DNA of 64,000 nucleotides. Source: a virus. Position 1 is the stretch's first letter; each line of letters opens with the position of its first letter. Shown one piece after another: positions 6,110-37,716 of this stretch. The notes under the pieces were generated by a model. The model ran no database searches and was not told where the DNA came from. It saw only the letters and a program-made list of their open reading frames with translations. The stretch lies in the IMG/VR virus record IMGVR_UViG_3300038393_002936; one strand, 5' to 3'. Position numbers and translations under genes: made by a program.

Positions 6110-6798
6110 ACAGCATGGCCCTTGTCCTCGGGGCCTGCTTGTGCGGGCAGGCCACCCCGGGGCCGACCCCGGCCGACCTGATTGAGGCCCGCTTCCTGCT
6201 GGCTTCGCCAGTGAATGAGACAGAGACGAATCCGGCCCCCGAGCATTATGCGGCCCTGAAAGCCGCGGTAATTGCCGTCGCGACCCAGGACGAGCTAATT
6301 AGCGACGAGCTAATTAGCGACGAGCGAGAAATGATGGGGTTCGATTACGAACCGGGTCCGAACGGCGAGGCCCGGGGGACAGAGTTTCTGTTCGAGAAAC
6401 CCGGCGACTGGGTCCGCCACCTGAATTTGTTGCGTGAACGCCGGGCGGAACTCGAAAATTGTCCATTACTTCAAGAACTGGGACGGTTTCCATCCAATCA
6501 AACAACGCAATCCTATCGTTCCTTCAGTCAGTCGTTTTGCTTTGAACTCTCGAAGCGAATCAAAAGCGGTCTAGAGGTAGACCGAGCCGACATCTTGCAG
6601 GCCACGTTGGACGAAGCCCAGCAAATGGCAGCCCCCTGGAATAATCTACATGACGCCGAAGCGTCGTATCTGTCCATCGTGGAGCGAAGAAAAAGCCTGA
6701 AATTTCTAAAGCAAAGCTTGAGCGAAGAAGATTGGCGTTCCGGGTCCTTGCCACCGATTGTTCCCACCTGGCGATTCACAGAACGGAGCCGTCGATGA
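6106..6798 (+). CDS. exported hypothetical protein, Gemmataceae-like
   Basis: Signal-like N-terminus; C-terminal LPPIVPTWRF resembles a planctomycete family (recall, not searched). Confidence 0.6.
   Translation: MNSMALVLGACLCGQATPGPTPADLIEARFLLASPVNETETNPAPEHYAALKAAVIAVATQDELISDELISDEREMMGFDYEPGPNGEARGTEFLFEKPGDWVRHLNLLRERRAELENCPLLQELGRFPSNQTTQSYRSFSQSFCFELSKRIKSGLEVDRADILQATLDEAQQMAAPWNNLHDAEASYLSIVERRKSLKFLKQSLSEEDWRSGSLPPIVPTWRFTERSRR
6289..6325. repeat. 15-bp tandem duplication gacgagctaattagc x2.5 (DELIS-DELIS)
   Basis: Directly visible, in frame. Confidence 0.9.
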
Positions 6799-7225: not shown

Positions 7226-7273
7226 TCCGGCAGGGAAGCACGCACATCTCCCTCTCCTGCCGGAGGTTTTTGT
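7226..7273 (+). terminator. terminator built from an inverted pair of the dispersed motif
   Basis: tccggcagggaag...ccctctcctgccgga followed by ggtttttgt. Confidence 0.65.
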
Positions 7274-7349
7274 TGGCGTAGCCAACCCACGAGCGGGTCT
7301 TAAGACCCGCGAGTGTAGTATCTGTTGCCCCCAACCAAAGGCAACAGGA

Positions 7350-9089
7350 ATGCATTACGCACTTAAATTAGAAGAACTGCGTCAGCGAATTAACCCCGTG
7401 GCCGTCTGGGCAGCCAACGGCAATTTGTACACTTCGAACATCGAGGTCACTGATTTATTCTCCGGCTTTGCCGGAGCCATCTCCACAGCAGCCATCGAGG
7501 TCCCCGGAGCCGCCACTGGAACCGACGGCGGTCTCGGCGTCTACAAAGTAGCAGCCGGGGCTGGTCCTGGGGGTGGTCCCCGCGTCACGGTCGGTCTGAC
7601 CCCAACGACCATTCTCGGCCAACTCGCTAATCGCCAGGACTTTTTTGCCTTCGAACCGACCTTTACGGGCGGGGTAACGGTCGCAGTCGGAGATGTGACG
7701 GGGGACGGGACTCCCGATGTGGTCGTCGGAACCGGCTCCGGCGGCGGCCCACGGGTCGAGGTGTTCGACGGGACCGACCTGCACTTGGTCTCGAGCTTCT
7801 TCGCGTACGACGCCGATTTCCGAGATGGCGTAAATGTGGCCGTCGCCAACGGCGATGTGGTCACCGGGGTCGGGGTCGGCGGCGGACCGAACGTTCGCAT
7901 ATTCGACGCTCACGGCACACAGCTCAGCTCGTTCTTCGCTGGGGACCCGTCTCTTCGTGATGGGGTCCAGGTTGCCGCCGGGGATTTGTCCCTTTCGGGG
8001 ACGGACCAACTCGCGACTCTCGCCAAGAGTTCGAGCGGTTATACGCTCGGCACTTTTGACCAGTACGGCACTCAACTAAACAGCTTTGAAGTGCTGACGG
8101 GCTTCGTTGGCCTGCGACCGACATTCGGCGTGGATTACCTGGGCAATAGCCTCATCGGCCGTCCCGACGTAGCCTACTCGGACCCAGTCACGGGCGATAC
8201 TTTCGTGGACGAGTGGGATACCGGCGGCCCGTTCGTCGGCGGCCGGCTCATCGACCACGTGGACCTGAACTTCTTCGACCCGTCCATCAACGCGGCCCCT
8301 GTCCAGCTCGGGTCCGTCTCTCAGGTCAATGGGGTGACCCGGTTTGACCTCAATGGCGGGTTGTTGTCCACCTACAGTGCCGAAGCCCTGGACGGTGGCA
8401 ACCCGCTCACGGGGCCACTCGACCCTGCCCCGGGTGGGGCCGCCATCGGGCCCGAAATCTCGCAGCAGGCCGGTACGCTGACCGGATATGTTCAAGATGC
8501 GAACGGGACCACTTACGGGCTGACGAACGAGCACGTGGTTGTCCCCGAGGGGACCGGCCCGGCCGGGGCCATCGGCTCGAACCAGGTGCAGCCCGGTCCT
8601 TATTTCGACGGGCCTTATCGGTCCCTCGGAACGGTCACGCAATATGGCGACCTGTCCCAGTCGGTCGACGCCGCCCTCATCAAGCTGAACGACCCCTCCG
8701 ACATCGATACACGGTCGGCTTACCAGAAACCCGACGGCTCCCTGGGATACGTGCAGGCCCACGGGACCGGAACCGTAAAAGTCGGCGACCTGGTCTATGC
8801 GGTCGGTGTGTTCGGGACCGTCGAGGGGCTGGTCATCGCGACCGGAGCAACCGCCGAGGTGACGGGTGAACCCGGGGTTCCGGCCGGTCAGCCTACCACC
8901 TTCAGTGACCAAATTGTGATGGCTGGGGTCGATTTCGGGGTCCAGGACATCATCCCGGGCGATTCCGGGTCACTGGTCATCTCGCAAGACGGGACTCGGG
9001 TCGCCATGGCGTTCGCAGGGGGGAGCCAAATCGGCATCGCCATGCCCATCCAGAGCGTGCTGAACAATTTGGGGGTCTCGTTCGCATGA
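7350..9089 (+). CDS. secreted FG-GAP-like repeat protein with C-terminal trypsin-like (PA clan) serine protease
   Basis: LKLEELRQRINP leader; GGGPRVxVF and FFAYD..F..GV.VAVGDV.GDG repeats; TNEHV, DAALI and GDSGS triad. Confidence 0.85.
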   Translation: MHYALKLEELRQRINPVAVWAANGNLYTSNIEVTDLFSGFAGAISTAAIEVPGAATGTDGGLGVYKVAAGAGPGGGPRVTVGLTPTTILGQLANRQDFFAFEPTFTGGVTVAVGDVTGDGTPDVVVGTGSGGGPRVEVFDGTDLHLVSSFFAYDADFRDGVNVAVANGDVVTGVGVGGGPNVRIFDAHGTQLSSFFAGDPSLRDGVQVAAGDLSLSGTDQLATLAKSSSGYTLGTFDQYGTQLNSFEVLTGFVGLRPTFGVDYLGNSLIGRPDVAYSDPVTGDTFVDEWDTGGPFVGGRLIDHVDLNFFDPSINAAPVQLGSVSQVNGVTRFDLNGGLLSTYSAEALDGGNPLTGPLDPAPGGAAIGPEISQQAGTLTGYVQDANGTTYGLTNEHVVVPEGTGPAGAIGSNQVQPGPYFDGPYRSLGTVTQYGDLSQSVDAALIKLNDPSDIDTRSAYQKPDGSLGYVQAHGTGTVKVGDLVYAVGVFGTVEGLVIATGATAEVTGEPGVPAGQPTTFSDQIVMAGVDFGVQDIIPGDSGSLVISQDGTRVAMAFAGGSQIGIAMPIQSVLNNLGVSFA

Positions 9090-9407: not shown

Positions 9408-9446
9408 TCCGGCAGGGAAGTGGACTATATCTGCTTCCCTGCCGGA
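9408..9446. terminator. perfect 13-bp inverted pair of the dispersed motif between convergent genes
   Basis: tccggcagggaag-N13-cttccctgccgga. Confidence 0.65.
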
Positions 9447-10815: not shown

Positions 10816-10910
10816 AGGCGTATTTCCGGCAGTTGACGAAGTCAACCGGACCACAGGTCCGGCAGTCGGCTCTGCCGACGGGACCGGAGGTCCGGCAGGA
10901 GAGGAGAGCA

Positions 10911-11807
10911 TTAGCGGCTCGCCAGGGCCGCCTGAACCACCCTCTTTGCACGATTCCGTTGTTCTTGAAGGTCAGGCACAAGTGCATCGTAATGCGGTTC
11001 CGTGATTGTAGGATAGGGCGACATCCCGTCCCCACCCCAACACCCGCTATCGGTGACTATGTCGGCTTCCCATTGTTCCCACGCCAATAACACTGCCTTG
11101 GCTTGCTCGAGAGCCACCAAGAAGGACTTTAGTTTCTCGACAGCTAAATCTCTCTGGGCGATGGCTTCGTCACGCTCCTTCTCTCCTTCCTGCCGGAGTT
11201 CTAGTGGCGTCTTCCCCTCTGGCCGCCTGACGATGGTCACCAGGAAGCCGGTCCCGTCCGGACAACCCATCACCATCTCCACGCAATTTTCGGCTTCACC
11301 GAGACTATCCCGGAAAGACTCGACCAACCACCGGGCAGCCCAATGCTTGAACTTGACACTCCCGTCAGCAATTTCCACGGGAATGTTTCTGAATGACTCT
11401 TCGATGCCTTCGTCGACCAGCTTCTTATAGTGGTCCCGCTGTCTGCGAAGCTCCCGAACTTCGTTCACAATATCTACCGGAGCCGTCTCTTCGTACTCGA
11501 GCCCCAAGGCTTCCAGAGCCGCCAGTGCCAAGTGCTCACAGTGCTGGGCACGGCCGACATTGTGGGCCGCCAGTTCTGCTTGGTAGGCGTCACGCTCGGC
11601 CCTCGCCGAGCCTCGCTCTTGCGTAACACGAGCAAGCTCTTCTCGGAGCTGGGTCACCTCGGCGACAGCTGAATCTCGACTTGCTCGCAACGAGGCCTTC
11701 CTGGCACCGACCGGAGCACCTATGCAAATCTCCCCGCTCACCACAGGGTTTTTAGCGAGTGGGCCGTCCGCTTCAGCGGACGGGGGAATCACGTGCTTTT
11801 TTGGCAT
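10911..11807 (-). CDS. hypothetical coiled-coil phage protein
   Basis: GAGGT RBS 9 nt upstream of ATG 11807. Confidence 0.7.
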   Translation of the reverse strand: MPKKHVIPPSAEADGPLAKNPVVSGEICIGAPVGARKASLRASRDSAVAEVTQLREELARVTQERGSARAERDAYQAELAAHNVGRAQHCEHLALAALEALGLEYEETAPVDIVNEVRELRRQRDHYKKLVDEGIEESFRNIPVEIADGSVKFKHWAARWLVESFRDSLGEAENCVEMVMGCPDGTGFLVTIVRRPEGKTPLELRQEGEKERDEAIAQRDLAVEKLKSFLVALEQAKAVLLAWEQWEADIVTDSGCWGGDGMSPYPTITEPHYDALVPDLQEQRNRAKRVVQAALASR

Positions 11808-11826
11808 CGGTGTATTACCTCAATGG

Positions 11827-12948
11827 ATGAAACTCACAGTGCAACTACAACTCCTTCCGGATACCGACCAGGCCCAGAAACTTCTGGAGACGGTCGAGCG
11901 ATTTAACGAGGCGGCCAACTGGCTGGCCGGGAAGGCGTTCGAGGCCAAACTCGCCAACAAGTTCGAACTCCAAAAGCGGTTCTACCGGGACATCCGCGAG
12001 CAGTTCGGGATTCCCGCGGACATGGCCATCCGGGTGATTGCCCAGGTGGTCGAGGCGTACAAGCGGGACAAGACTATCCGGCCTGTGTTCCGCAAGCACG
12101 CGGCCGTTCCGTACACTTACAACCGCAATTACTCGTTCAAGGGCCTGGACCGGGTCAGTCTGTCCGTGGTCCCGAGCGGTCGCGTGGTCGTCCCGTTTGT
12201 GCTCGGGGCCTACCAAAAGCAGCAATTCGGGTTCGCCAAGGGTCAGGCCGACCTTGTGCTGCGGCCGGACGGCAAATGGTTCTTGCTGGTCACGGTCGAC
12301 CTGCCTGGTGAACCACAACTGCCCATTACGGATTTCGTCGGGGTCGACCTCGGCATCGTGAACATCGTCACGACCACCGAAGGCGAATCGGTCAGTGGAG
12401 CCCACATCGAGGCCGTTCGTCGGCGGTCGGCTCGGGCCCGGCAAACCTTTCAACGGAGGAACACCCGGAACAGCCGGCGGCGACTGCGGAAGTTGTCCGG
12501 TCGGCAATCGCGATTTCAGAAGGACATTAACCACACCATAGCAAAACGGCTCGTCGCCCAGGCAAAGGCACTCGGGAAAGGTCTGGCTCTTGAAAACCTC
12601 AAGGGGATTCGGACCCGGACCGAGCGAACGGTTAACAAGACTACGCGGCGAAAGCTTTCGAACTGGTCGTTTTTTCAGCTCCGAAACTACATCACCTACA
12701 AGGCAGAACTGGCCGGCGTCCCGGTCGTCTTCGTGCCGCCCCATAACACGTCCAGGACGTGCTCCCGGTGCGGACACTGCGACAAGGGAAATCGGCCGTC
12801 CCAAGAGCGGTTCTCCTGTCTGAGTTGTCACTTCACGATTCATGCCGACCAAAACGGGGCCGCGAACATCCGTTCGCGTGCCCTAGGGGTTTTTGTCAAC
12901 AACCCTCATTTAGCGGTGGCTCAGGCCGACCGCAAGCCGCCTGCTTGA
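11827..12948 (+). CDS. tnpB: IS200/IS605-family TnpB RNA-guided nuclease
   Basis: RuvC-I GVDLG, RuvC-II ALENL, Zn finger CSRCGH...FSCLSC, RuvC-III ADQNGAANI. Confidence 0.95.
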   Translation: MKLTVQLQLLPDTDQAQKLLETVERFNEAANWLAGKAFEAKLANKFELQKRFYRDIREQFGIPADMAIRVIAQVVEAYKRDKTIRPVFRKHAAVPYTYNRNYSFKGLDRVSLSVVPSGRVVVPFVLGAYQKQQFGFAKGQADLVLRPDGKWFLLVTVDLPGEPQLPITDFVGVDLGIVNIVTTTEGESVSGAHIEAVRRRSARARQTFQRRNTRNSRRRLRKLSGRQSRFQKDINHTIAKRLVAQAKALGKGLALENLKGIRTRTERTVNKTTRRKLSNWSFFQLRNYITYKAELAGVPVVFVPPHNTSRTCSRCGHCDKGNRPSQERFSCLSCHFTIHADQNGAANIRSRALGVFVNNPHLAVAQADRKPPA

Positions 12949-12964
12949 GCTGGCGGTGGTTGAC
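11829..12964 (+). mobile_element. solo tnpB (IS1341-like) element; no tnpA and no visible left end
   Basis: Typical right end aagccgcctgcttgagctggcggtggttgac ending at 12964. Confidence 0.75.
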
Positions 12965-12984
12965 GAATCGCACTTTGGACCGCT
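12800..12984 (+). ncRNA. putative TnpB omega RNA with guide GAATCGCACTTTGGACCGCT (12965-12984); 5' boundary approximate
   Basis: gtcaac(12895)...gttgac(12959) pairing and right-end hairpin; known TnpB architecture. Confidence 0.65.
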
Positions 12985-13124
12985 CGACTCCTTCCGGCAG
13001 GGAAGGGATTATGGGGCGGCTCGCTCTTGCAGTAAACGACGATTTCGTCCTTGCCGAGTCCGACAGCCTGCATCCACGAAGTGCCATGAAGGTGGTCAGC
13101 CAGTAGTTTGCACTGTTCGTTCAC
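12921..13124 (-). CDS. small hypothetical protein whose 3' end is replaced by the tnpB insertion
   Basis: First 53 aa lie outside the element; reconstructed empty site gives ...SAIHPLR-stop at 11815. Confidence 0.6.
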   Translation of the reverse strand: MNEQCKLLADHLHGTSWMQAVGLGKDEIVVYCKSEPPHNPFPAGRSRAVQSAIRQPPPAQAGGLRSA

Positions 13125-13240
13125 CGAAGACCTCCTGAGAAGAAAGAACGCCGGAGGGGTCCCCGGCGTCTTACTCCAGCAGTCTGCCGGACAGAGTACC
13201 GCGAGTGCCTTCGGGTCACGCCCGTGGCATCGCCACCTTA

Positions 13241-13268
13241 ATTATAGTGTTACCGACAACGAACTCAA
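13241..13268 (-). promoter_or_regulatory. leftward sigma70-type promoter
   Basis: TTGAGT-N16-TATAAT preceded by ACAC, as in other promoters here. Confidence 0.55.
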
Positions 13269-13621
13269 CAGCGAACGCGAGGAAATCTTCACCGTTTTGC
13301 ATCGCAAAACGTCATCGGTCGCAAAATTTATTTTTCCATGCCCCATAAGGACTTAGGACAAAATTGCGATTTTCTCGCTGAGGCCGCATCGTTTTTGGGG
13401 CTCAATCTTAGGTATCTTTCCGGCAGAAGGAAAGAGGTGTGTGCTTCTCAAACCACTCACCTCAACCGGTTCTCAGTCCAGTCTGACCTCTCAGAAAACC
13501 TCCGAGAGAAGATTAAGAGATAAAGAAGCCCGGGGGGATATTCCGTACCGAGGGGCACTATCAACCAGCGATGTTCAGGGCGAGACTCTGAACGACTTGC
13601 GAGCTGCGAAAAAAAACGCTT

Positions 13622-14080
13622 TCAACTACGAATTGCGCCTGACATCTTCGCCGCCAAGTAGTTCTTTTCCGGCGGAATCCAGTTTGCCTGCCATCCAACT
13701 TCCATTCGCTCCAGAGTCGCCCTGACGTTGTCGAGAAGCGGGAGCATGCCGGCTGGCAACCACTTCCCCTCGCCACCAAGGAAACCAACCAGGTCCCGCG
13801 AGTCGTTGCTAATGAGGATAAACCGCGGCTCAAGGTTGTCCATCACCATCCAGTCCAGAGCCTTAAGCAAGCCGTGCAGGGCTGGCGAAAAAGAACACCT
13901 TTGTTTTCCCTTGACCGTTCCACGACCGACCTTGACTACCTGCCAGGTCGCACAGTCCCGCACGACCCAGCCGTACCGACCCCTGCCCGTCTGCGGGTCG
14001 ACGTAACCTGCGAAGTTGAGAGCGTAGTCTGTCGTGGGCATCTGTCTCTCTCTTCCCGTACCCCCGCCTTTATCCCTCAC
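13622..14080 (-). CDS. RNase HI-fold protein with degenerate active site
   Basis: FAGYVDP..GRGRYGWVVRD, NDSRDLV, WIPPEKNYLAAKMS. Confidence 0.65.
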   Translation of the reverse strand: MRDKGGGTGRERQMPTTDYALNFAGYVDPQTGRGRYGWVVRDCATWQVVKVGRGTVKGKQRCSFSPALHGLLKALDWMVMDNLEPRFILISNDSRDLVGFLGGEGKWLPAGMLPLLDNVRATLERMEVGWQANWIPPEKNYLAAKMSGAIRS

Positions 14081-14525
14081 CCCACCATCGACCAGGCTTT
14101 CTGGCTCGTTAGTGAACTAAGGAATCTGCGCACACAAGGCGGGTTAGTCGCAAGAGGTCTTCGCGTGCCTGTCGTTCGATGGCCGACAGGGTAGGGTGGA
14201 GTGGAAGGACCCGGTGGTAGTGGGGTTGTGAGGACTGCGTTGAGAGGCTGGCTCAGAGCGCAGATTCAAATGGCCCCATCCACTCCATTCTCGACACCGT
14301 CCAGGGGGTACTGGACGGCTCCTCTTAAGTCGAACCCCGGCCGGGGATATGCCCGGCTCGCGGCGACCCTGGGTAAAGCCGACATCTGCAAACCAGCAGG
14401 CCCCAATTAGCCCGCACATTATGGTCGGCGTTTTTTGGGTCGCTTGCGAATAACCCACTTCCTTAATACCCCACCGCACGGTATCACTCTATAAGGCACA
14501 CTGTCTTTGTCACGCTGGAGGCGAC

Positions 14526-14777
14526 ATGGCCCTTATCTCGCAAAAGCCCACGGTCCAGGTCCAGGCTACTTTTCAACTCGACGAGGAAGAAATGCGGGCA
14601 CTCGACGCGCTCGCCGGATATGGGACCGAAGTTTTCTTGAAAACCTTCTATGAGAAGTTAGGTCGCGAATACCTCGAACCGCACGAAAACGGCCTGCGGA
14701 AACTGTTCAAGACAGTCCGAGACGCCATTCCGGCCATCCTCGAGCGAGCCGACGAAGCCCGGAAGGCGTTTGGGTAG
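14526..14777 (+). CDS. hypothetical protein
   Basis: GGAGG RBS. Confidence 0.65.
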   Translation: MALISQKPTVQVQATFQLDEEEMRALDALAGYGTEVFLKTFYEKLGREYLEPHENGLRKLFKTVRDAIPAILERADEARKAFG

Positions 14778-14819
14778 TAGAACACTTTTCCGGCAAGGAC
14801 GCTTAATGTGGGGGATTGC

Positions 14820-15398
14820 ATGGACAACCACGCCGACTGGACGCCCGAAGCCCGTGCGTTATGGTCTACTTCCCTGCCGGAAATGGACCGGGACATCCTC
14901 GTGGGCACTGGCCATCGCCCACAAACCCTTGGTCTCCACCACGGCCCCCAAACGAACAGGTTACTGACGGAGTTCGCCCGCAAGCACCTCGAGCAGGTCC
15001 CCCGCCCTCAAGTCGTGTTGACCGGCGGTGCCCTCGGCTGGGATTTAGCCCTCTCGCACGCCGCAATCCTGTTTGGAATTCCCCTCTGGGTCGCAATTCC
15101 GCACGCGGGCTACACAGAACGGTGGCCGGAACCGGCTCGGAAACGATTCTGGGCAATTCTCGACCGAGCCAAGAAGGTCGTCCAGGTCTGCACCGGCGGG
15201 TACTCGCACGGGAAACCGCTTTCTCGCAACCGTTTTATGGTTGACATTGGAACCCGCGTTCTTGCTCTTTGCAATGGCACGGGCGAAGGTGGGACAGCTC
15301 AGTGCGTCGAATACGCTCGCCGAGTCGGACGACCAGTTTTGAACCTCTGGGAAGACTGGGAGATTTTCCGGCAGTCTGCTGATGCAACTGGGCGGTAG
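14820..15398 (+). CDS. YspA/SLOG (DUF1273-like) protein
   Basis: VGTGHRP, TGGALGWD, RNRFMVD, GGTAQCVEYA. Confidence 0.85.
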   Translation: MDNHADWTPEARALWSTSLPEMDRDILVGTGHRPQTLGLHHGPQTNRLLTEFARKHLEQVPRPQVVLTGGALGWDLALSHAAILFGIPLWVAIPHAGYTERWPEPARKRFWAILDRAKKVVQVCTGGYSHGKPLSRNRFMVDIGTRVLALCNGTGEGGTAQCVEYARRVGRPVLNLWEDWEIFRQSADATGR

Positions 15399-15411
15399 TT
15401 CCGGCAGGGAA

Positions 15412-15590
15412 GCTTAATAGGGGGGATTGGATGGACAACTACCAGGACTGGACCCCCGAAGCCCGCACACTCTGGTTTACTTCCCTGCCGGAAACAGACC
15501 ATCGCCCGCAAACTCTTGGGCTCCAGCACGGTCCCCAGACAAGCAGGCTCCTCGTCATCAAGTCGTAACGACTGGCCGGGTAGTATTCAG
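15412..15590 (+). pseudogene. degenerate tandem copy of the SLOG gene 5' end
   Basis: MDNYQDWTPEARTLWFTSLPE..HRPQTLGL vs MDNHADWTPEARALWSTSLPE..HRPQTLGL; deletions, stop at 15568. Confidence 0.8.
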
Positions 15591-15815
15591 CGTCAGCAGG
15601 TTAACAAAACGAAAGCTCGGATTTTCCGGCCGGCTATTTTTGCCCGTGGAGCAATTGTGATGTCTTGGACTCGATTCAGGACTACTCACGAAGGTTCGCT
15701 TCGCTCACCGGAATAGGTTCCGTTCTCGAGGACACATCTCCCTCTCCTGCCGGAAAGAATTTTCAACTCTTGGGAGCGCTCTTACGAGCCCCGCTCGTGT
15801 TGGCGGAGCCAACTG

Positions 15816-16073
15816 GTGTATGACCCATTAGGACCGCACCCAGGGGGCCGTATGCCAATCCAACTGCCGCAAACTATTACGTGGGAAGTCTGGAAACGAC
15901 TTCGCCGCAAAAACAAGCGGCCGGGGGATTGGTTGTGCGTAGCCGAATTTTCGGCCCGTCGCTGGCAGTTCGCGCTCAAGCTAAAAGCCCGACTGGTCGC
16001 CCGCGGTTATGAGGTGGTCCTACGGCAAATCACCGTAAGTAGCGAAGAGCGGATTCCCGCAAAGGCGACCTAA
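15816..16073 (+). CDS. hypothetical basic protein
   Basis: ORF abuts next gene. Confidence 0.45.
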   Translation: MYDPLGPHPGGRMPIQLPQTITWEVWKRLRRKNKRPGDWLCVAEFSARRWQFALKLKARLVARGYEVVLRQITVSSEERIPAKAT

Positions 16074-16352
16074 ATGTGGACGTTGCATGTCGTTGCTTTT
16101 GGTGTTTCCGCCCTGGCCGGGCTTGCGGCCCTGCTCAGGTCCGATACGGCAATGACCCGCAAAACGGTCGCCGCTCACGTGCTGAACGCGGGCGTACTTG
16201 GGCTCGGTATCAGCCTCGTGTGGTATTCTCAGTTTCGTGATAACGTCCACCTGCTCGTCGGACTGTGCGTCATCGTGGGACTGGGCGGGATGTCGAGTGT
16301 CGAGTTCTTCACGAACTTGGCCCGTAATTTTATGAGCTTGGGGAAAAAGTGA
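16074..16352 (+). CDS. putative holin-like membrane protein
   Basis: 92 aa, three TM segments, basic C-terminus. Confidence 0.5.
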   Translation: MWTLHVVAFGVSALAGLAALLRSDTAMTRKTVAAHVLNAGVLGLGISLVWYSQFRDNVHLLVGLCVIVGLGGMSSVEFFTNLARNFMSLGKK

Positions 16353-16693
16353 TGAAACGGCATGTTGGGCGGGCCATCGGCTACACCGCCTTGGCAGGCG
16401 TTTGTTTTGTAGTCTCCCGGACCATTTGGCCCACGGAAGGCCTGGGCGTCAGCTTGGCTCTCTTTCTGCTCGTATCTCTTGTTGCCGAAACGATTTTGCC
16501 GGCTCTCTTCCCGCACCCGGACGACGCCGGGCATTTGGCCCTGAGTCGCGTTTTTTCGCTGGCGGGGCCGTGCAGTCGAGGACCGAGCCCAGAGCCCTGG
16601 CGGCCCATTGCCCTCCTGGCGGTCGGCGTCTTTATTGTGCTGTTGGGTTTCGTCCTCACTTCGCACGCGGTCGCTCTCAAGGCTGCCGGTTGA
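16349..16693 (+). CDS. membrane protein
   Basis: Three hydrophobic segments; GTGA overlap. Confidence 0.55.
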   Translation: MMKRHVGRAIGYTALAGVCFVVSRTIWPTEGLGVSLALFLLVSLVAETILPALFPHPDDAGHLALSRVFSLAGPCSRGPSPEPWRPIALLAVGVFIVLLGFVLTSHAVALKAAG

Positions 16694-16726
16694 TTCACAT
16701 TTTGCCCGCCAAACGGGCGAAGCCCC

Positions 16727-16755
16727 TTGACCTACACTGTAATAAACTCTAGAAT
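16727..16755 (+). promoter_or_regulatory. sigma70-type promoter
   Basis: TTGACC-N17-TAGAAT. Confidence 0.65.
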
Positions 16756-16787
16756 AGCGTTAAAGGCCGCACTCTGGAGTTATCGAT

Positions 16788-18422
16788 ATGCTGGTCGGCG
16801 ACATTCACATGTGGTCCCTGAATGGGACCACTCGTCGTTATACGGTCGTTACGCTTCCGTACGAATTGGCCTCGAAGCTGTTTAAGGCAAACGTCTACGA
16901 CGCCAAGACGGGCGAAGGGGAACAGCGGAAGGAAATCGCAACTCACGTCAAGGCCCTCAAGCGGGATATGCTAGCGGGGCAGTTCACCCCGACCCCGGTG
17001 TCTGCCGGATGTCGTCCGAAGCACCTAACTTCGGTTGTTTTTAACAAATACCAAGTCCATCTAGACCTCGACGAAGCCGACCCCCTTCCCTTGACCGACG
17101 GCCAGCAGCGATTTGGGGCTCTCCGGGCGATTGTGGAAGAGGCCAAGAAGGATGAAAACGCGGACCTGCTCAAGAAGGTCCTTGGCCTTCCCATCACCGT
17201 CACTATCCATTTTGACAGCAAGCCCGCGGTGGACTTTTTGAGGCTTCAGCTCGGCCGCCCGGTCGACACAGCCCACCTGTTGAGCCTCAAGGTCAAGGAA
17301 GGCCTGGTCCCGGACAAGGACTCGAGTCCGCTCAAGCTCGCGATGGCGGTCGCCAAGTTCATGCACGGCTCGTCGTCCAGTCCCTTTCACAAGATGGTCA
17401 AGTTCGACACGCGGGGGATGTCGAATCTGCCCGTGACGACTTTGTGTGCTCGTGGGGCCTCTGACCTGTCCGTCAGTCTCATGGGCCTGGTCAAGGTCGG
17501 GGCGAAGGCAGGCATCGAGACACCTGAAGAGCTTTCTGACTTCGTCACCCAGGTCGTCAAGACCCTGAATGAGCGGGCACCCTACCTGCTCGACACCGGA
17601 ATGCCCCTGTGCCCGCCACCGGACGGAACACGGGGTTCGGCCACGATGCTGATTGGGCTCGCGACGTGCCTCGCGTATCGCGTTTATGAAAAAGGCAACG
17701 GGAAGGTCGAAGAGGAGGACCTCGCGAAGCTGGTCGAGGTTGCCGAAGAAGTGTTCGAAACTCCCGTTTCGGGGAATTTTTCGAGCGCGTTCAAGCGGGA
17801 CCTGATGAAGGCGTTCGCCACCAGGTTCTTTTCCGACTTGGTCGGACCGCAGCACGAGGGGATTCCGGTCGAGCTGCTCAAGACCCTGAGCTGTTCGTCG
17901 TTCCGCGTGAGTCGTCTTCCGAAAGAGCGGACCGCGACTCGGGGTCGGGCGGCTACTTCTCGGGCCCCGCGAGCTTCGGCCAAGCTGGCTTCGCCAACGG
18001 TGGCTGAGCCGCCTAAGCCGTCCAAGGCAGCCGCGGTGATTCCTGCTCAGAAGCCTGCTCCGCAGCCCCCGGCGGAAGTGATGGTAGCCCCTCCTCCCCT
18101 GGTGAACAAAGTTCACGTCGGCGGAGCCGACCTGCCGGAAACGAGTCGGCCTCCGGAAGTGGCTTCGTCGCCAAAGATTACTGGCCCGGCAACCGCTGTT
18201 GAAAACAGCAAGGGGTCTGGGGTGGTCAAGCTTCAGTCGCTCGGTGAGTTCATCCCGGTAGTCGACTCCGACAACGGGAGCGAAGCTCCCATAGTCGCCT
18301 CTTGCGGCATGAACGCAGGTCCGGCAGGGAAGCAAGATATGGTGACTGGGGCGTCAGCCACAGTGACTATTCAAGAAGGTAGTAGTCAGTATCCTGATGT
18401 GGACCCGTGGGATGCTGCCTAG
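16788..18422 (+). CDS. DGQHR/DndB (ParB-like) domain protein with disordered Pro/Ala-rich tail
   Basis: LPLTDGQQRFGAL; about 160 aa low-complexity tail ending VDPWDAA. Confidence 0.7.
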   Translation: MLVGDIHMWSLNGTTRRYTVVTLPYELASKLFKANVYDAKTGEGEQRKEIATHVKALKRDMLAGQFTPTPVSAGCRPKHLTSVVFNKYQVHLDLDEADPLPLTDGQQRFGALRAIVEEAKKDENADLLKKVLGLPITVTIHFDSKPAVDFLRLQLGRPVDTAHLLSLKVKEGLVPDKDSSPLKLAMAVAKFMHGSSSSPFHKMVKFDTRGMSNLPVTTLCARGASDLSVSLMGLVKVGAKAGIETPEELSDFVTQVVKTLNERAPYLLDTGMPLCPPPDGTRGSATMLIGLATCLAYRVYEKGNGKVEEEDLAKLVEVAEEVFETPVSGNFSSAFKRDLMKAFATRFFSDLVGPQHEGIPVELLKTLSCSSFRVSRLPKERTATRGRAATSRAPRASAKLASPTVAEPPKPSKAAAVIPAQKPAPQPPAEVMVAPPPLVNKVHVGGADLPETSRPPEVASSPKITGPATAVENSKGSGVVKLQSLGEFIPVVDSDNGSEAPIVASCGMNAGPAGKQDMVTGASATVTIQEGSSQYPDVDPWDAA

Positions 18423-18452
18423 TCGAATTAGTGCGATTTCCTGACCAGTGAG

Positions 18453-18740
18453 TTGGGACAATTCACAGGAGACATGATGAGCGATTGCCCTGTGGCGAGG
18501 TTGGCTCTGGCTTTCAACAGGCTAGTCGACGTAATGCTTGATGGTGGGCCCGAAAACGAAAAGAAGACTATTGCCGACGAAGGCATTGCTCTAATTCAGC
18601 AAGTTCAGGATAAATTTGGCGAAGAAGTTGTCAACACGGTTGTTCCTGATGGTGTCTTGGAGTCACTCAACCCTCGGGCTCGCTCGTTCGCTCTTTACGG
18701 AGCCTTCCTCGCTCTCCAAGAAGAGATGAGTCGTGCTTAA
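18453..18740 (+). CDS. hypothetical protein
   Basis: ORF in operon. Confidence 0.55.
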   Translation: MGQFTGDMMSDCPVARLALAFNRLVDVMLDGGPENEKKTIADEGIALIQQVQDKFGEEVVNTVVPDGVLESLNPRARSFALYGAFLALQEEMSRA

Positions 18741-19842
18741 TTATTTATCACCGGTTTCTAGTCTTGGTTTTGGGGTTTGTGGTGCCAATCTGCTCGAAGC
18801 CCTGGACCAAATCGGGGCCAAACCCGCCCTGTTCCCCATCGGCCCCCTGGAGGTTCAGCACGAGCACCAACAGGAGTGCGTCCGCAGGTCGCTTGAGCGG
18901 TCCCGGCGGTTTTCCTACGGTGCCCCCTCGCTTCGAGTCTGGCACCAGTTTGCCATGCACGAGCATGTCGGCCGGGGACCGAAGGCCGGGTACAGCTTCT
19001 TCGAATTGGACCGCCTGACCGAGGACGAAGTTCATCACCAGAACGGGCTCGATACCGTGTTCGCTTCGTCGGAGTGGGCAGCCGACGTGATGCGGCAGAG
19101 CGGGGTCCGGGTGCCCATTGTGGTGGCCAAGCCGGCGGTGGATACGCGGGTATTTCATCCGGGGGTCACCCCGCTGCCGCTCAAGAAGCCGACGCCGGAC
19201 ACTTGTGTCTTTTTGAGCGTGGGGAAGTGGTCGGTCCTGAAAGGCCATGATTGGCTGGTTCGTGTCTTCAACGCGGCATTCACTGTATCGGACGACGTTC
19301 TGCTGGTCCTGGCCTGCTTCAACCCCCTGATGGTCCCTGGCTTCAACGGGCCCGAGGAATCCCGTCGCTGGGAACGACTTTACATGGAGAGTTCGCTGGG
19401 GCGTGCTGGCAAGATTCGGGTGGTCTCGGGTCGGCTTCCGACCCAGCGGGACGTTGCGTCCTTGATGGCTGGGGCCGACTGTGGGGTGTTTCTGGCTCGG
19501 GGCGAGGGGTTCAACCTGGAGCTGGCCGAGATGCTAGCAATGGGTCGGCACTGCGTGGCCACCAATTATGCGGCTCACCGCGACTTTGCCGGACCAGGAG
19601 GCTGCCGACTAGTCGAGGTAAAAGAGACTGAGGAGGGCTTCGAGCCGCCGTTTTTACCGGCAGGGAAAGGAGGATGGGCTCGACTCGGGGATGACGAGTT
19701 CGAACAGGCGGTGGCTGCTCTGCGAGCAGTGCTCGCAGACAAGCAGGCCGGCCGACTCGGGTTCAACCAGGCTGGGTACGAGTTGTTCCAGCGGCAAACG
19801 TGGGCGGGATGTGCCAGAACCATTATGGAGCATTTGTCATGA
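18733..19842 (+). CDS. glycosyltransferase family 4 (GT-B)
   Basis: SVGKWSVLKG; EGFNLELAEMLAMG (EX7E). Confidence 0.85.
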   Translation: MLNYLSPVSSLGFGVCGANLLEALDQIGAKPALFPIGPLEVQHEHQQECVRRSLERSRRFSYGAPSLRVWHQFAMHEHVGRGPKAGYSFFELDRLTEDEVHHQNGLDTVFASSEWAADVMRQSGVRVPIVVAKPAVDTRVFHPGVTPLPLKKPTPDTCVFLSVGKWSVLKGHDWLVRVFNAAFTVSDDVLLVLACFNPLMVPGFNGPEESRRWERLYMESSLGRAGKIRVVSGRLPTQRDVASLMAGADCGVFLARGEGFNLELAEMLAMGRHCVATNYAAHRDFAGPGGCRLVEVKETEEGFEPPFLPAGKGGWARLGDDEFEQAVAALRAVLADKQAGRLGFNQAGYELFQRQTWAGCARTIMEHLS

Positions 19843-25049: not shown

Positions 25050-25838
25050 ATGAAGTGCTTTTTTACCATAGTTGCCGCCCTGCTCGTGGGGGCGGTCGTT
25101 TTGGGTGCCGACCCACAGGTCCCTACCCAGAAGATTGTCGGGGCCGAGCAGCCCATTCCGTTGGGCGAACTGGTCACACTGGGCGTCAGTCCGGCAGGGA
25201 ATGTGAGTGGACTGAAGGCGGTCACTTACGAGTGGAGTATCTTCGACGGGTTCACCAAGAAATCCCTGGCCGAAGACTCCAAGGGCAAGGTGTTTTTCGG
25301 GGCCGGCGTCAAGAACAAGAAACTGCTGGCGGTCGTGGCCGCGACTTACGTGTTTGACGGCGGGAATGGCCAGTACACGGTCAAGACCGTGCAGCTGAAC
25401 GAGACGGTGACCATTGGTGGGGGCGATACCCCCGAAAATCCGGTCACCCCGGCGGTCCCTCCAGGGACAGGTCCGGTTGCACCTCCTACTCCCCCTCTCC
25501 TGCCGGAAGGTAAGTACGGCCTGGCTCAGACCGCTTTTAATCTCGCCCTGAAGGTGGACGCGACCAGTCGGGTCTCGGCCGTTCAGCTCGCGGCGGCGTA
25601 CGACTCGACCGCGGCCAAGATTAAGAGCGGCGGCCTCAGTGGTGCCAAGAACATCCTGGTGGTCCTGAAGGGCGAGAGCGACAAGGCCCTCAACAACAAG
25701 ACGGACGGCTGGCAGGATTGGGCCGCTGGCGTTGGTGATGTGCTTTTTAGTCTCGCGCAAGCGAGCAAAATCCAGAACGACGACGATTTCGCGACGGCGT
25801 TTTCCGAAATTGCCACCGGGCTCAAGGGGGTCAAGTAA
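25050..25838 (+). CDS. exported protein with Pro-rich linker
   Basis: Signal peptide MKCFFTIVAALLVGAVVLG; PENPVTPAVPPG linker. Confidence 0.7.
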   Translation: MKCFFTIVAALLVGAVVLGADPQVPTQKIVGAEQPIPLGELVTLGVSPAGNVSGLKAVTYEWSIFDGFTKKSLAEDSKGKVFFGAGVKNKKLLAVVAATYVFDGGNGQYTVKTVQLNETVTIGGGDTPENPVTPAVPPGTGPVAPPTPPLLPEGKYGLAQTAFNLALKVDATSRVSAVQLAAAYDSTAAKIKSGGLSGAKNILVVLKGESDKALNNKTDGWQDWAAGVGDVLFSLAQASKIQNDDDFATAFSEIATGLKGVK

Positions 25839-26702: not shown

Positions 26703-28406
26703 ATGCGAATCCCGAACGGGGCCGTCTTAGGGGCGGCCCTTATTCTTTGTGGACCCACGACCCAGGCTGTCGCAGCCGAGCCGGCTCTGGCCCCTGCCCC
26801 GGTTCTGGTGGCTTCGCCGGACTCCGAGCTCGCCGCGTGCCAGGCCTTTCTGGACAAGCGGGCTCAAGCCGGGGATGACCGCGTCAATTATTATTTGTTT
26901 TTCACGAACTACACGATTCCACTCAAGTGGACGTGGAAGAACGAGGAAGTCGAGCTTCGCCGCCAGGCCGAGCTTGCCCTCCCGTACGTACTAAACTCGC
27001 TGGCCGGCGTTCATGCAGACTCATTCATCGTCAAACCTAAACGGCTTCCAGGCTCGGATACTATTTGGTACGTGGACATCGAGGATTTCGGCTGGTCCAA
27101 GGAAGACGTGAACGCGGTCGCCCGACTATCTCCCTATTTCTTGAACCCGGTAGTTGACGCCACCAATACGACCATCCTGTTGCGGACCGACTGGTTCCTG
27201 GTCTACGCCACGGACAATACGAAGTTGAACGACCGGGGCATCAAAACTATCCCGTACTACGTACTCCAATACGGGCTCGGGAAGGAACCGGCCAACAAGG
27301 ACGATTTTTTGAAGACTTGGGAAATTGACGAAAAACGAGCGCAGGCCCGAAATATTTTGACCGGGACTATCGTGGACGCTGGGGACAGCGGGGTCTCGAG
27401 TCATACGCGGCAACTGGGGCGGGCCCGGACTGACCTTGGTTATTACTGGTTTACGAAGGACGTCAAGTCGCACGACGTGGACCCGGACGCGGTCCAGAGT
27501 CGGGACTATCTGGAAGAACTGAAGGCCGCCCGGGTGGACGCCGGGGAATACATCGCCACGAACAAGCGACGGCTCCAGACCTACTTTTTGACGGCGGGTA
27601 CGGCGAGCAATTTTAAGCGGGTCGAGGACGGCGACACGGGAATTGTGGTGGACCGCCAGGACGCTCACGACGTGCGGGTCCGGACCGCCAAATCGTGCAT
27701 CGTTTGTCATAGTTTCGGCATCATCCCGTACACGAACGCTTTCCGGGAATTGTTGGCGAAGGGCGGGAAGCTCTATGCGAAGGACAAGGTTCGCGAGCGG
27801 GAACTCCGGTCGTTCTACCTGACCTACAAGAACGGCGAGGAGGTGAAGCAGGATAACGACCTGTTCGCGGCGGCCGTGGTCGAGTGCAACGGGCTGAGCC
27901 CCGAGGACAACCTGAAGGCCTACCTGAGCGTTTACGAGTGGTACTGGACGCAGAAAGTGGGCCTCGAGCAGGCGGCGACCGAGTTCGGGGTCATGCCCGC
28001 GGAGCTCAAGGCGGGCATCCAGGGAGCGACGACCGCCCGGCTCGTCCAGTTGCACCAGGGCAAGGCCATCCCGCGGGAAATCTGGGACAGTCCCAATTTT
28101 GGCGGATACGTGCAGGTGGGGCTGTTTCTGAAGCGAATTGACGGAACTCGCCTGAAACAGTCGTCTCCGACGACAGGAGCCCAAGAGGCTCCACTCCGGC
28201 AGGGAAGTGAGGATGGCACTGTCCCTCTCCTGCCGGAAAAATCTGTGGGGGTCGTTCAGACTCTACTGGTGGACAAAGACGACAAACCGGTGGTGTATTT
28301 AAATAAGGGGACCACCGTCACGGTCTTAAAAGATTATGATGAAGATTGGTGCAAGGTGCGGGTCGGTCAACACCAGGGGTACGTTCGCCGGGCTCATTTG
28401 AGGTGA
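26703..28406 (+). CDS. exported planctomycete-type protein with CxxCH motif and C-terminal SH3 domain
   Basis: Signal peptide; SGVS..R...GYYW..D, GEYI, SCIVCH; KGTTVTVL...WCKV....GYV. Confidence 0.75.
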   Translation: MRIPNGAVLGAALILCGPTTQAVAAEPALAPAPVLVASPDSELAACQAFLDKRAQAGDDRVNYYLFFTNYTIPLKWTWKNEEVELRRQAELALPYVLNSLAGVHADSFIVKPKRLPGSDTIWYVDIEDFGWSKEDVNAVARLSPYFLNPVVDATNTTILLRTDWFLVYATDNTKLNDRGIKTIPYYVLQYGLGKEPANKDDFLKTWEIDEKRAQARNILTGTIVDAGDSGVSSHTRQLGRARTDLGYYWFTKDVKSHDVDPDAVQSRDYLEELKAARVDAGEYIATNKRRLQTYFLTAGTASNFKRVEDGDTGIVVDRQDAHDVRVRTAKSCIVCHSFGIIPYTNAFRELLAKGGKLYAKDKVRERELRSFYLTYKNGEEVKQDNDLFAAAVVECNGLSPEDNLKAYLSVYEWYWTQKVGLEQAATEFGVMPAELKAGIQGATTARLVQLHQGKAIPREIWDSPNFGGYVQVGLFLKRIDGTRLKQSSPTTGAQEAPLRQGSEDGTVPLLPEKSVGVVQTLLVDKDDKPVVYLNKGTTVTVLKDYDEDWCKVRVGQHQGYVRRAHLR

Positions 28407-29881: not shown

Positions 29882-30031
29882 CCAGAACATTTTCGTTTGC
29901 GATAGCGGGCGTTAGCCCCTACACCGCTCCCCCTCCTGCCGGACCGTTTTTATGCTTCCGACCGTTGACCCGTCAGGGTCAGGTCAGGGGGTATTAGACT
30001 CTCTGCCCCTTTTTCCCCGGCAGGGTAATCC

Positions 30032-33000
30032 ATGTCCGTCGCAGAGCTGCAAAAGTACACAGCCGTCTCAAAATACGCTCGCCATCTAAAGGACCAGGGT
30101 CGTCGCGAAGTCTGGTCGGAAACGGTCGAGCGGTCCAAGCAGATGATGACGGAGAAATATCCGGGGCGGGCGGTTCAGATTCGCCGGCTGTATGACGAAT
30201 TCGTGTTGCCGATGAAGGTCCTTCCGAGTATGCGAGGACTTCAGTTCGGTGGGCCGCCGCTTTTTAAGCACAATAGCCGCATTTTTAATTGTTGGGGAAG
30301 CTATGTCGACCGACTCAGTTTTTTTGGCGAAGCATTTTACATTTTGCTGTGCGGCGGCGGGGTTGGGTATTCGGTTCAGGTTTGCCACATGCGGAGCCTG
30401 CCGAATTTCAGCCGGGCTCGGCTCACGGGGCGGTCGCTCCCGAAAAAGGTTTACCGGCCCGACGACAGCATTGAGGGGTGGGCGAACTGCGGCCACGTCC
30501 AGATGTCCTCCTATCACGAACGCCCGGTTCCCGGCTTCGAGGAATGGATGGACTGCGATGTGGAATTCGACCTGTCCGGCATTCGCAAGAAGAATTCTCC
30601 ACTGTCGTACGGAGTCGGCCGGGCCCCGGGGCCGATGCCCCTCGGAAAGGCCCTGAAACGGAACAAGAAATTGCTGGACATGGCCGTCGGGTCTGGGCTG
30701 ACCCGGATGACGGACGAGCTGGCCAGTGACGTTCACCTGAATAACTCGGACGCGGTGGTGTCGGGCGGAGTTCGGCGGTCGGCCAATATCTGTTTGTTCG
30801 ACCTCCGGTCCGAGCGGATGCGGCGGTACAAGACCGGGGACTGGCGAAGTACACGGGACCAGCGAGCTCGTGCCAATATCTCGGCTGTTCTTGTTCGTGG
30901 ACAGGTCAACTGGGAACAGTTCTGGGAACTGTTTGGGGCCACCAAGGAATTCGGGGAACCCGGGTTTTGGTGGTGCGACCACGAGGACTATATAACAAAT
31001 CCTTGTCAGCCGGCATTTGCACCCATCATCACGCCAGACGGTCTTCGGACAATGGGGGATATCGAAGTCGGCTCCAGGATTTGGACCGAGACCGGTTGGG
31101 CGACTGTCGTTAAAAAATGGAGTACGGGTGTCAAGCCTGTGTTTCGTTATCGAACGGCGGCCGGCACGTTTATTGGTACGGCCAACCACCGCATTCTTCA
31201 AAATGGGCAAAAGGTCGAGGCTGGGAACGCGTCGGCTATCGACACACTCGCCGGTCCTGCCGATTTGCCGGTGGAGCACGACGCACAACTTATCATGGAT
31301 GGGCTCGTTCTGGGTGACGGGACTGTCCACAAGGCTTCCGGTGACTTGATTTTGCTTTGTATCGGCAAATACGATACTTCTTATCACGACTCGGAAATCC
31401 GTCATCTGGTAGGTATTTACCGCCCTGGTGTTTCGAAGTACATGTGGGAAGTCGCGACAGGGCTATTGCCTTCGGAATTGCCCCGGACATTCGAGCGTCG
31501 TATTCCGGACCGTTATAAATTCTCGGATGTGGCTTCCGTCCGGAGTTTTCTGCGGGGTCTTTTCTCGGCGAACGGAAGTGTGGTCGGCAAGGGGAAGCTG
31601 GGCCGGGCCACCCTCAAGACCTCGAGTCGGCAAATTGCCGACGATGTCCAGTTGATGCTTTCGTTGGTTGGCATCCGGTCGTACGTCACCGTGAACAAGC
31701 CGGCAGTTGTTTCGTTCAAAAACGGCGACTACAAGTGCAAGCAGAGTTACGACGTGAATATCTCTGCGGACCTCGGCCGGTTTGCCCAGACCATCGGATT
31801 TCTCCAGCCCTACAAGCGGGACAAGTTGTGGGTCGCGGTCGAGGCGAGACTGACCGTAGAAAACCTACGCCCTAAGACGACTTATGAGATTACTGAGGCC
31901 GAGCCTCTCGGGGAGATGGAAGTTTTTGATATTACGGTCGATAACGAACCGCATACTTACTGGACCGGCGGCTGCAATGTTTCGAACTGTGCTGAGATTC
32001 AATTTTACGCCAGACTGTTGCTCGAGCGAGGCCACCCAGACTTGGCCCGCCTTCTCCTGAAGTACGACGGCCCGCTGGTCAAGGTGGATGGGAAGGTCGG
32101 GCTTTCAGGGTGGCAGGCGTGCAATTTGACCACGCAGAACGGCAAACTGGTCAAAACCCCGGAAGACCTTTACGAGTTGTCGGACGCGGCAGCCGAGCTC
32201 GGGACCTACCAGGCCGGCTTCACCAGCTTCCCGTATCTGGGCGAGATTACCGAGCGGATTGTCGAAAAAGAGGCCCTTCTCGGGGTATCCATCGCCGGGG
32301 TCATGCACAATCCGGCGGTGATGCTGGAGCCTGCGGTTCTGCAAGAGGCCGCCCGCCGGGTACGACTTCGGAACCAAGAGACGGCTGATGCCATCGGGAT
32401 AAATAGGGCCGCTCGGCTGACGTGCGAAAAGCCGGACGGGAATTCGGCCTGTACACTCGGTTCGTTCAGCGGGGCTCATCCAGGCAAGATTCGCCGCGGG
32501 TTCCGGATGACCCAAGAGAACAAAGGCGGCGTCCCGTACCAATTCTTTAAGTCGGTCAATCCGGAAGCCTGCGAACCCTCGTGTTGGAATCCGAACCAGA
32601 CGGACGACGTGATTCGGTTCTGTGTCGAGTACGACGGACTCCTCGAGGATGACATGACCGCCCTCGAGTTCCTCGGGCACGTCCGGACGCTCCGAAAGCA
32701 CTGGGTCGAGGCCGGGACTGTGCCGGAGCGGTGTAGCCGACCAGGCCTAACCCACAACGTGAGCTGCACGGTCAAGGTCCGAAACCACGAATGGGGAGGC
32801 GTGGCGAGGGAGATTTTCGTCAAGCAGCAGGATTTCGGCGGCGTCTCGTTCATTTCGGACTACGGGGACCGGGACTATCCACAGGCCCCCTTCACTCCGG
32901 TCTTTCTTCCGGACGAACTCCTGAAAATGTACGGCGGTCACGGCGTGGTTCGGGCCGGGGATATGGTCGACATCCTTCCTGCCGGACCGAGCTTCCGTCT

Positions 33001-34001: not shown

Positions 34002-34442
34002 ATGGAAGTGTCAGCACGAAGTAAGCTGGTCGCCCTGTGTCTGCTCGGGTCTGTTGGTTGTGGGTGGTTCGGCGAAGGTGCTCGGGTCGCCCGCCAGGAA
34101 TTCGGCCCGGCCGCTCTGCTCAAGAAGTATGAATTGTTCAAGGACCAGGTCGCAGCCCTGGACGCCAAGCGGGCGGACATCGAGGTTTATGAGGTCCAAC
34201 TCGCCTCGGTCAAGGCCTCGCTCGCCGAAGTCCCCCGGAAGGACTGGCCACGGCACGAGGTCGAGCGGATTTCCCTGCTGGAACTAGAGGTGGCCGCACT
34301 TAAATCGAGCTATAACCAGCTTTGTTCTAATTACAATTCGAATATGGCCAAGGACAATTATCGGTTCGCCAATGTGGGCGAGTTGCCTCCGGGGGCAACC
34401 CAGCCGCTTCCGCGTGAGTTCCGGGCGTACGTAACCAAGTAG
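34002..34442 (+). CDS. putative lipoprotein, coiled-coil
   Basis: AGGAGG RBS; LLGSVGC lipobox-like. Confidence 0.7.
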   Translation: MEVSARSKLVALCLLGSVGCGWFGEGARVARQEFGPAALLKKYELFKDQVAALDAKRADIEVYEVQLASVKASLAEVPRKDWPRHEVERISLLELEVAALKSSYNQLCSNYNSNMAKDNYRFANVGELPPGATQPLPREFRAYVTK

Positions 34443-34490
34443 TGGCATTCTCCACTTGAACAAACCCGACTTTCCGGCAGAGGAGTTCTT

Positions 34491-35392: not shown

Positions 35393-35491
35393 TGCCAGAA
35401 GCCGCGCAAATTCTGGGGGCCAGTCTTTTTATCGGCTGGCTCTCTTTACGCCTCGGACCGCCCTTGTTGTTTATCGGCGACTTCCTCATGA

Positions 35492-37705: not shown

Positions 37706-37716
37706 CGGAGCATTGA

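Follow-up and report, generated by a model that had tools for sequence, protein, structure and literature searches.

A tnpB gene of a large phage probably lies in a complete insertion sequence of the IS200/IS605 family

Introduction

Can a tnpB gene whose start codon stands almost back to back with that of a neighboring phage gene belong to a complete insertion sequence (IS), or must it do without a left end? The question is raised by a locus in a viral DNA of 64,000 nucleotides (nt) (IMG/VR record IMGVR_UViG_3300038393_002936), all of which was analyzed and which is called the window from here on. Its tnpB gene (11827..12948, plus strand) begins 19 nt from a divergent ATG at 11807, with GAGGT in the gap. 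A preliminary description of the sequence recorded these features correctly, and took them to mean that there is no room for a left end and that the gene is a candidate RNA-guided homing endonuclease. The evidence assembled here leads to a different answer: with a probability of about 0.85, the segment 11745-12964 (1220 base pairs, bp) is a complete, non-autonomous insertion sequence that carries only tnpB, belongs to the IS1341 type of the IS200/IS605 family and resides in a phage genome.

The second copy and the ends of the element

Both ends of the element are defined by a second, inverted copy found in sister phage strains of the same Joint Genome Institute (JGI) metagenome series. The element of the window is referred to as copy A and the second one as copy B, and the compared loci carry L-numbers. 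A dozen metagenome contigs from a single JGI series encode exactly the protein of 298 amino acids (aa) that lies next to tnpB; among them, L006 is the same as the window, some break off within tnpB at position 12410 or 11936 of the window, and L007 follows the window to 12964 and then enters different DNA. The tnpB variant of copy B, present on L007, L010 and L011, is identical to the window over 11827-12410, and differs from it at 51 positions in 12411-12800 and at 3 in 12801-12964. The other side of copy B (L014, L016 and L017) was found by a look-up with the first 36 residues of TnpB.

The left end (LE; 11745..11826, plus strand, 82 nt) is the stretch in which these three loci are homologous to the window upstream of tnpB; it opens with AGGGTTTTTAGCG at 11745, and the flanks beyond it are unrelated. 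Over these 82 nt the two copies show 6 mismatches. Both contain the ATG at 11807 and the GAGGT, which are therefore element sequence, not a phage ribosome-binding site, so that the LE for which no room had been seen does exist, overlapping 21 codons of the divergent open reading frame (ORF). Within it lies a subterminal hairpin of 8 bp (11764..11783, plus strand; predicted DNA fold), formed by CCGTCCGC, the loop TTCA and GCGGACGG, whose stem is kept in copy B; similar hairpins are found at both element ends in relatives. The idea that this hairpin is a coincidence of coding sequence was dropped, since copy B shows it to be part of the LE. As for its loop, TTCA at 11772-11775 appears in copy B as the reverse complement TGAA (L014, around 7945-7948) between identical stems, and the palindrome looks as if it had been flipped between the copies. 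Independent support for the LE comes from the assemblies, in which contigs end, both at k=127 (JGI) and at k=31 (Logan), where the paths branch at a G/A mismatch at 11809.

The right end (RE) lies exactly after GGTTGAC at 12964, where the homology with copy B stops and where the RNA model of the family, described below, also ends. On this boundary the preliminary description was right, and GGTTGAC is indeed canonical for the TnpB clade to which the element belongs. Directly 5' of the LE stands the motif CCAC (11741..11744, plus strand), the predicted transposon-associated motif (TAM). The filled allele of site A thus reads CACCAC, LE to RE, GAATCG, with the junction at 11744/12965; the corresponding 5' flank is AACCAC in copy B and GCCAC at the empty B site.

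The empty site of copy B

The bases that follow the RE of copy B, TACTTGGTTACG, are the reverse complement of the window from 34441 downward, which identifies window position 34441/34442 as the empty site for copy B. Homology of copy B to the region of the element covers 11740-12964 and goes no further; its flanks match window 34452-42356 (LE side, reverse complement) and 34443-34009. The empty site (34426..34446, minus strand) consists of GCCAC (34446-34442) followed by TACTTGGTTACGTACG (34441-34426), and the break falls inside the TAG stop codon of an ORF (34002-34442), which the last base of the RE restores. Filled B alleles are carried by L010, L011 and L106 (RE side) and by L014, L016 and L017 (LE side), and empty ones by the window and by L107, which comes from the same sample as filled B contigs. 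In the filled alleles AACCAC precedes the LE and TACTTGG follows the RE; in the two empty ones GCCAC runs directly into TACTTGG. Filled and empty alleles agree in every base of the right flank for at least 45 nt, and on the left 14 of 28 positions differ. As the comparison of filled and empty B alleles shows, target duplication is absent; CCAC adjoins the 5' side of both copies, and the element has no terminal inverted repeats.

The strains also differ elsewhere. The window and L107 have a single ORF of 1079 aa with a LAGLIDADG_3 match (window 30032-33271) at a place where sister strains (L010 2363-5061; L105 13333-16031) have separate small (345 aa) and large (553 aa) ribonucleotide reductase genes, and the filled-B strains are those with the split genes. 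A stretch of 15 bp at window 6289-6303 is absent from L007 and is the sole indel in 7.5 kb of near-identical left flank. Beyond the JGI series, a blastn search of GenBank phages with 10900-13400 gave no match. In metagenome_contigs an exact search for the 5' sequence of tnpB gave 0 matches, from which it follows that this collection lacks the phage.

Family relatives and the target motif

A scan of one genome per prokaryote species recovered 80 relatives, 40-57% identical, from Latescibacterota, Planctomycetota, Acidobacteriota, Tepidimonas and other groups. Both ends could be resolved in eight of nine multi-copy families, all of them tnpB-only and 1.26-1.36 kb long. TCAC or CCAC opens the conserved block in seven of the eight resolved families, TCAT in the remaining one; the block ends with CAAGCC, a hairpin and then (T)(A/G)GTTGAC, or GGTGAC/GTTTAC. 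It is known that TCAC is the experimentally determined TAM of AmaTnpB (PMC10278001), and the TAM of the phage element is probably of this CCAC/TCAC-like kind. The structural features of the IS1341 type of IS200/IS605 elements are all found in it, namely the TnpB domains, the two hairpins, a motif without duplication and a predicted omega-RNA scaffold, and the element is a regular member of this group. The occurrence of tnpB in phages is already known from cyanophage A-1(L) (bioRxiv 10.64898/2026.02.14.705889), and the role of TnpB in element retention is already established (PMC10055086).

These data bear directly on the proposal that tnpB lost its left end or never had one, is out of reach for TnpA and depends for its spread on homing alone, with TGGAT as TAM and an empty allele, CAATGGAT joined to GAATCGCAC, that restores a coupled two-gene operon. 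The proposal drew on the 19 nt between the start codons and the GAGGT in that gap, on the failure to find tnpA in the window, and on a join that ends the short ORF just before the ATG, and it placed the right end and the guide correctly. Against it, copy B shares the 82 nt upstream of tnpB, including ATG 11807 and GAGGT, next to an unrelated flank; the hairpin at 11764-11783 is conserved; the element occupies two sites, each 3' of CCAC; and the contig ends put the first copy-specific base at 11809, not at 11828. Since the relatives start after TCAC or CCAC, never TGGAT, and TCAC is the AmaTnpB TAM, both the TGGAT motif and the junction 11828/12965, with its restored ORF ending in AIHPLR and TAA, are refuted, the actual junction being 11744/12965. 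The preliminary description had itself named a different junction or a left end in relatives as grounds for giving up its reading, and copy B shows both. That reading can hardly be maintained any longer. What stands of the RNA-guided homing endonuclease is a TnpB-type nuclease gene with a family-typical RE; the spread by homing alone, in view of two CCAC sites without duplication, does not.

The right end, the omega-RNA and the guide

Reading the sequence, a subterminal hairpin can be drawn in the RE (12937..12956, plus strand) from CCGCCTGC, the loop TTGA and GCTGGCGG, with one T-T mismatch and with the tnpB stop codon included. It is kept in copy B and fits the layout CAAGCC, hairpin, (T)(A/G)GTTGAC of about 50 relatives, and such an RE occurs once in the window. 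A covariance model (R1), built from 26 bacterial relatives with the phage left out, matches 12843..12964 (plus strand) over its full length and ends at 12964 (62 bits, E 3.9e-15); copy B is matched likewise, and nothing else in the window is. This segment, which overlaps the tnpB 3' end and the RE, is the predicted omega-RNA scaffold, ending at the element boundary.

The fold is consistent with this prediction. GTCAAC (12895..12900, plus strand) provides the 5' strand of a long-range helix with the terminal RE bases GTTGAC (12959-12964), and when 33 right ends were aligned, RNAalifold paired these columns in 31 of the 33 sequences. Compensated variants of the helix occur in relatives (GTCGCC/GGTGAC and GTCATC/GGTGAC), and in the same alignment a GUCUC/GGGAC-type helix has both sides changed in 10-11 sequences. 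The last 226 nt of the element have a fold z-score of -3.85 relative to shuffles. The low divergence between copies A and B in 12801-12964 was at one point taken as proof of constraint on the RNA; it was dropped, given that such constraint is inseparable from recombination and that 11827-12410 is identical as well. An Rfam scan at gathering thresholds and tRNA scans gave no match.

Judging from the TnpB mechanism, the flank GAATCGCACTTTGGAC (12965..12980, plus strand), which starts at the first base after the RE boundary, would be the guide of copy A. The start of the guide agrees with what had been described before, although the insertion-free allele that was reconstructed around it does not hold. 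Apart from their own sites, the guides of copies A and B are each unique in the window.

The TnpB protein and the start of its gene

The tnpB gene encodes a protein of 373 aa with intact catalytic motifs, in which OrfB_IS605 and Cas12f1-like TNB domains are recognized (Pfam, E 1e-10 and 4e-22), and the nearest protein outside the phage is 62% identical. Across 25 homologues M1 is unchanged and the RuvC triad (D174, E256 and D341) is invariant. The motifs GVDLG, ALENL and HADQNGAAN and a CxxC...CxxC zinc ribbon align to solved Cas12f/TnpB structures, which implies that the nuclease center is intact. Copies A and B of tnpB differ by 42 synonymous and 11 non-synonymous changes, and the resulting ratio of non-synonymous to synonymous rates (dN/dS), 0.088, indicates that TnpB is kept as a protein. 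TnpB is predicted to be an RNA-guided nuclease, a prediction supported indirectly by the intact motifs, by this dN/dS and by the perfect TAM plus target in the empty alleles.

Selection on the protein would also be expected if the locus were an immobile relic or a domesticated TnpB, acting as a guide-RNA-directed regulator or as a weapon against competitors, with copy B derived from recombination between phages. Such an explanation would fit the purifying selection on tnpB, the filled state of site A in every recorded contig, the failure to find tnpA in the window or in the fetched phage loci, and the fact that the LE now supplies the start of a phage ORF. However, the RuvC triad is intact, unlike that of nuclease-dead domesticated forms, and the ends, hairpins and terminal motifs are kept as in the mobile multi-copy relatives. 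Moreover, copy B is a clean insertion without duplication that matches an empty allele in co-occurring strains, an outcome that illegitimate recombination would not yield. A relic or domesticated gene is, on this evidence, quite improbable, and the reading as a complete insertion sequence is preferred.

The start of tnpB was compared with that of its relatives over the 40 nt upstream of the gene in L001-L003 and L019-L098 (window 11787-11826). Of 78 distinct relatives, 59 have a TAnnnT box that starts 10-16 nt (mostly 12-13) before the start codon, TTGAC frequently lies some 17 nt upstream of the box, and a Shine-Dalgarno sequence is absent; this suggests that tnpB mRNAs of the clade are leaderless. 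The phage gene has a -10-like TATTAC (11813..11818, plus strand) 8 nt 5' of its ATG, likewise without a Shine-Dalgarno sequence, and its start is possibly leaderless too.

An open frame of 335 aa runs antisense through tnpB (window 11845-12852, minus strand). A translated reverse-strand ORF in a cyanobacterial tnpB has been reported in a preprint (bioRxiv 10.64898/2026.02.14.705889); the frame of the phage appears to be one of the long antisense frames that are usual in GC-rich coding DNA.

Probable inverted copies around a 21-kb segment

In some strains copies A and B probably stand inverted around about 21.4 kb, with 601 identical bases common to both, and the contigs show this segment in both orientations. 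Contig Ga0395901_0001702 (22.7 kb) carries at one end the A-type 3' half of tnpB with the A flank, 99.985% identical to window 12284-18948, and at the other end the B flank with a B-type 3' half, in inverted orientation to the first. Ga0395907_0000491 (43 kb) starts at about 12288, runs through the segment to the right end of B and a full tnpB, and then passes through an A-type left end into the left flank of A, which is the product expected of crossing-over between inverted copies. The uninverted order is found in Ga0395906_0001342. A look-up with a 175-aa gene of the segment led to Logan contigs only.

Short reads cannot span 601 identical bases, so that neither path is proven by them, and both the two-copy genome and the inversion could be assembly artefacts, with a strain that has only copy A and another that has only copy B joined through the shared stretch. 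Many contigs do break at 11936, 12284 or 12410, as they would at a repeat too long for the reads, and the identity to the window shifts along contigs from 99.98% to 87%. On the other hand, two contigs from different samples contain the whole 21-kb segment with the 3' half of an A-type tnpB at one end and that of a B-type tnpB at the other, for which the repeat need not be crossed, and all four junction types are present in sample 3300038443. An artefact is therefore considered unlikely; the contigs point to a genome with two copies as likely, and inversion isomers are plausible.

Mobility and maintenance

When six-frame translations of the 64-kb window and of the retrieved phage loci were searched with a profile built on three Y1 transposases from genomes in which relatives occur, no Y1 tnpA was detected, and in this respect the earlier observation that tnpA is missing from the window was borne out. 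One metagenome-assembled genome of Planctomycetaceae with relatives has 26 Y1_Tnp matches, from which mobilization in trans in a Planctomycetaceae-like host seems plausible. The two CCAC sites without duplication imply at least one single-strand transposition of the TnpA type in the phage lineage; homing alone cannot create a new site, which is why spread by homing only fails as an explanation.

The insertion point of the element lies between a small ORF of the phage and the 298-aa one. In the mechanism proposed here, the tnpB mRNA would be processed to omega-RNA with the flank GAATCGCACTTTGGAC as guide, as expected from the family, and TnpB with this RNA would cut any allele that has CCAC directly before the guide sequence, in other words a site that is empty or has lost the element by excision. 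A filled genome would then serve to restore the element by recombination, and a new site could be reached only with Y1 TnpA supplied in trans by the host or by a stretch of the phage beyond those seen here. Such cutting of empty alleles, with recombinational copying as the next step, is a plausible route of maintenance. Sister copy B has a genuine empty allele in which the target is perfect: the guide matches it without mismatch for at least 45 nt beside CCAC, and filled and empty alleles co-occur in one sample. A more far-reaching idea is that, among strains infecting the same cell, the element works as a natural RNA-guided gene drive and that its inverted copies also drive a reversible inversion of the 21-kb block; this is tentative, and on balance somewhat doubtful.

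Several points weigh against the interpretation as a complete mobile insertion sequence. It is copy B, together with the family comparison, that places the boundary at 11744/11745. No empty allele of site A was found in the databases searched, where the site is filled in every recorded contig, and exact IMG/VR scans with the right flank and with the left flank of A gave 0 matches each. The search for tnpA covered 64 kb, and the phage contig measures at least 166 kb. The motif of the phage is CCAC and that of the family more commonly TCAC, and the -10-like box of the window (TATTAC only) is weak and degenerate in comparison with its relatives. Joining 11744 to 12965 does not produce the coupled operon once proposed; it makes the small ORF overlap the 298-aa ORF out of frame for about 50 codons, which is odd. 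Finally, nuclease activity, guide length and TAM are predicted properties of this element.

Neighboring phage reading frames

The annotated 298-aa ORF (10911..11807, minus strand) owes its first 21 codons (11745-11807) to the LE. The LE carries an outward ATG (11807) and GAGGT in frame with this ORF, and for that reason the gene seems to start at a distance of 19 nt from tnpB. The corresponding outward ATG of copy B begins an ORF of only 48 codons, out of frame with the next gene. The 298-aa protein has no relative in IMG/VR, and among 5.8 billion proteins none was found but itself. The small ORF on the other side (12921..13124, minus strand; AGGAGG, GTG start) takes its last 15 codons and stop (12921-12964) from the antisense of the RE and tnpB, and it is recorded in the IS-fused form only, on six contigs. 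Within 12965-13124 its GC content by codon position is 0.65/0.43/0.62, as in real genes; the upstream extension of the 298-aa frame is without that pattern.

Other repeats were seen in the window. Gene ends repeatedly carry the motif TCCCTCTCCTGCCGGA or its complement, in many cases as inverted pairs (for example 7226-7264 and 9408-9446); such sites lie at 7249-7279, 25492-25522, 28222-28252, 29928-29958, 37470-37500 and 46381-46423, and a copy of CCGGCAGGGAAGG lies just past the guide of copy A (12995-13007). Two adjacent ORFs share, over their starts and the DNA before them, a direct repeat of 102 nt that is 82% identical (14788-14889 and 15399-15500); the first of these ORFs (14808-15398) has a weak YpsA/SLOG match.

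Significance

A gene start that abuts tnpB may be an artefact of an insertion-sequence end inside an ORF, and in this case 21 codons of a phage gene come from a transposon; caution is warranted with calls of "end-less" tnpB made from a single sequence. Three features make the locus notable: a filled/empty polymorphism with an intact target, an inverted pair around 21 kb and a phage ORF start encoded by a transposon. With close phage strains in one metagenome series, a fixed site A, a polymorphic site B and an intact TAM plus target, it is a natural test bed in which RNA-guided homing between viral genomes and IS-mediated inversion are directly testable.

Comparison with known systems

Like the members of the IS1341 group, the phage element has a single tnpB, two subterminal hairpins, an insertion 3' of a short motif without duplication, a predicted omega-RNA that overlaps the tnpB 3' end and the RE, and a size of about 1.2 kb. 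It differs from them in residing in a virulent-looking large phage genome and not in a chromosome, in an LE of 82 nt, as against 100-135 nt in the closest multi-copy relatives, and in promoter-like boxes that are degenerate. With AmaTnpB of Alicyclobacillus macrosporangiidus it is likened by the motif alone: CCAC here, and TCAC or CCAC in relatives, correspond to the tested TCAC, the first base of the phage motif being C instead of T (PMC10278001).

The RuvC/zinc-finger core also aligns with that of ISDra2 TnpB (PDB 8H1J and 8EXA; E 1.8e-7), and the two systems would share a TAM beside the LE, a guide from the RE flank and the cutting of empty sites followed by recombination (PMC10055086). ISDra2 has its own tnpA, however, uses TTGAT and is a distant relative; the best PDB matches of the phage TnpB are Cas12f-type chains. 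Further parallels are the phage-borne tnpB of cyanophage A-1(L) and, in cyanophages, invertible segments that measure tens of kb, are bounded by inverted repeats of 500-700 bp and exist in both orientations (bioRxiv 10.64898/2026.02.14.705889). In that study the inverted repeats are not copies of tnpB, which lies inside the module, whereas in the phage described here the copies of tnpB are themselves the repeats, and the isomers are seen in assemblies only.

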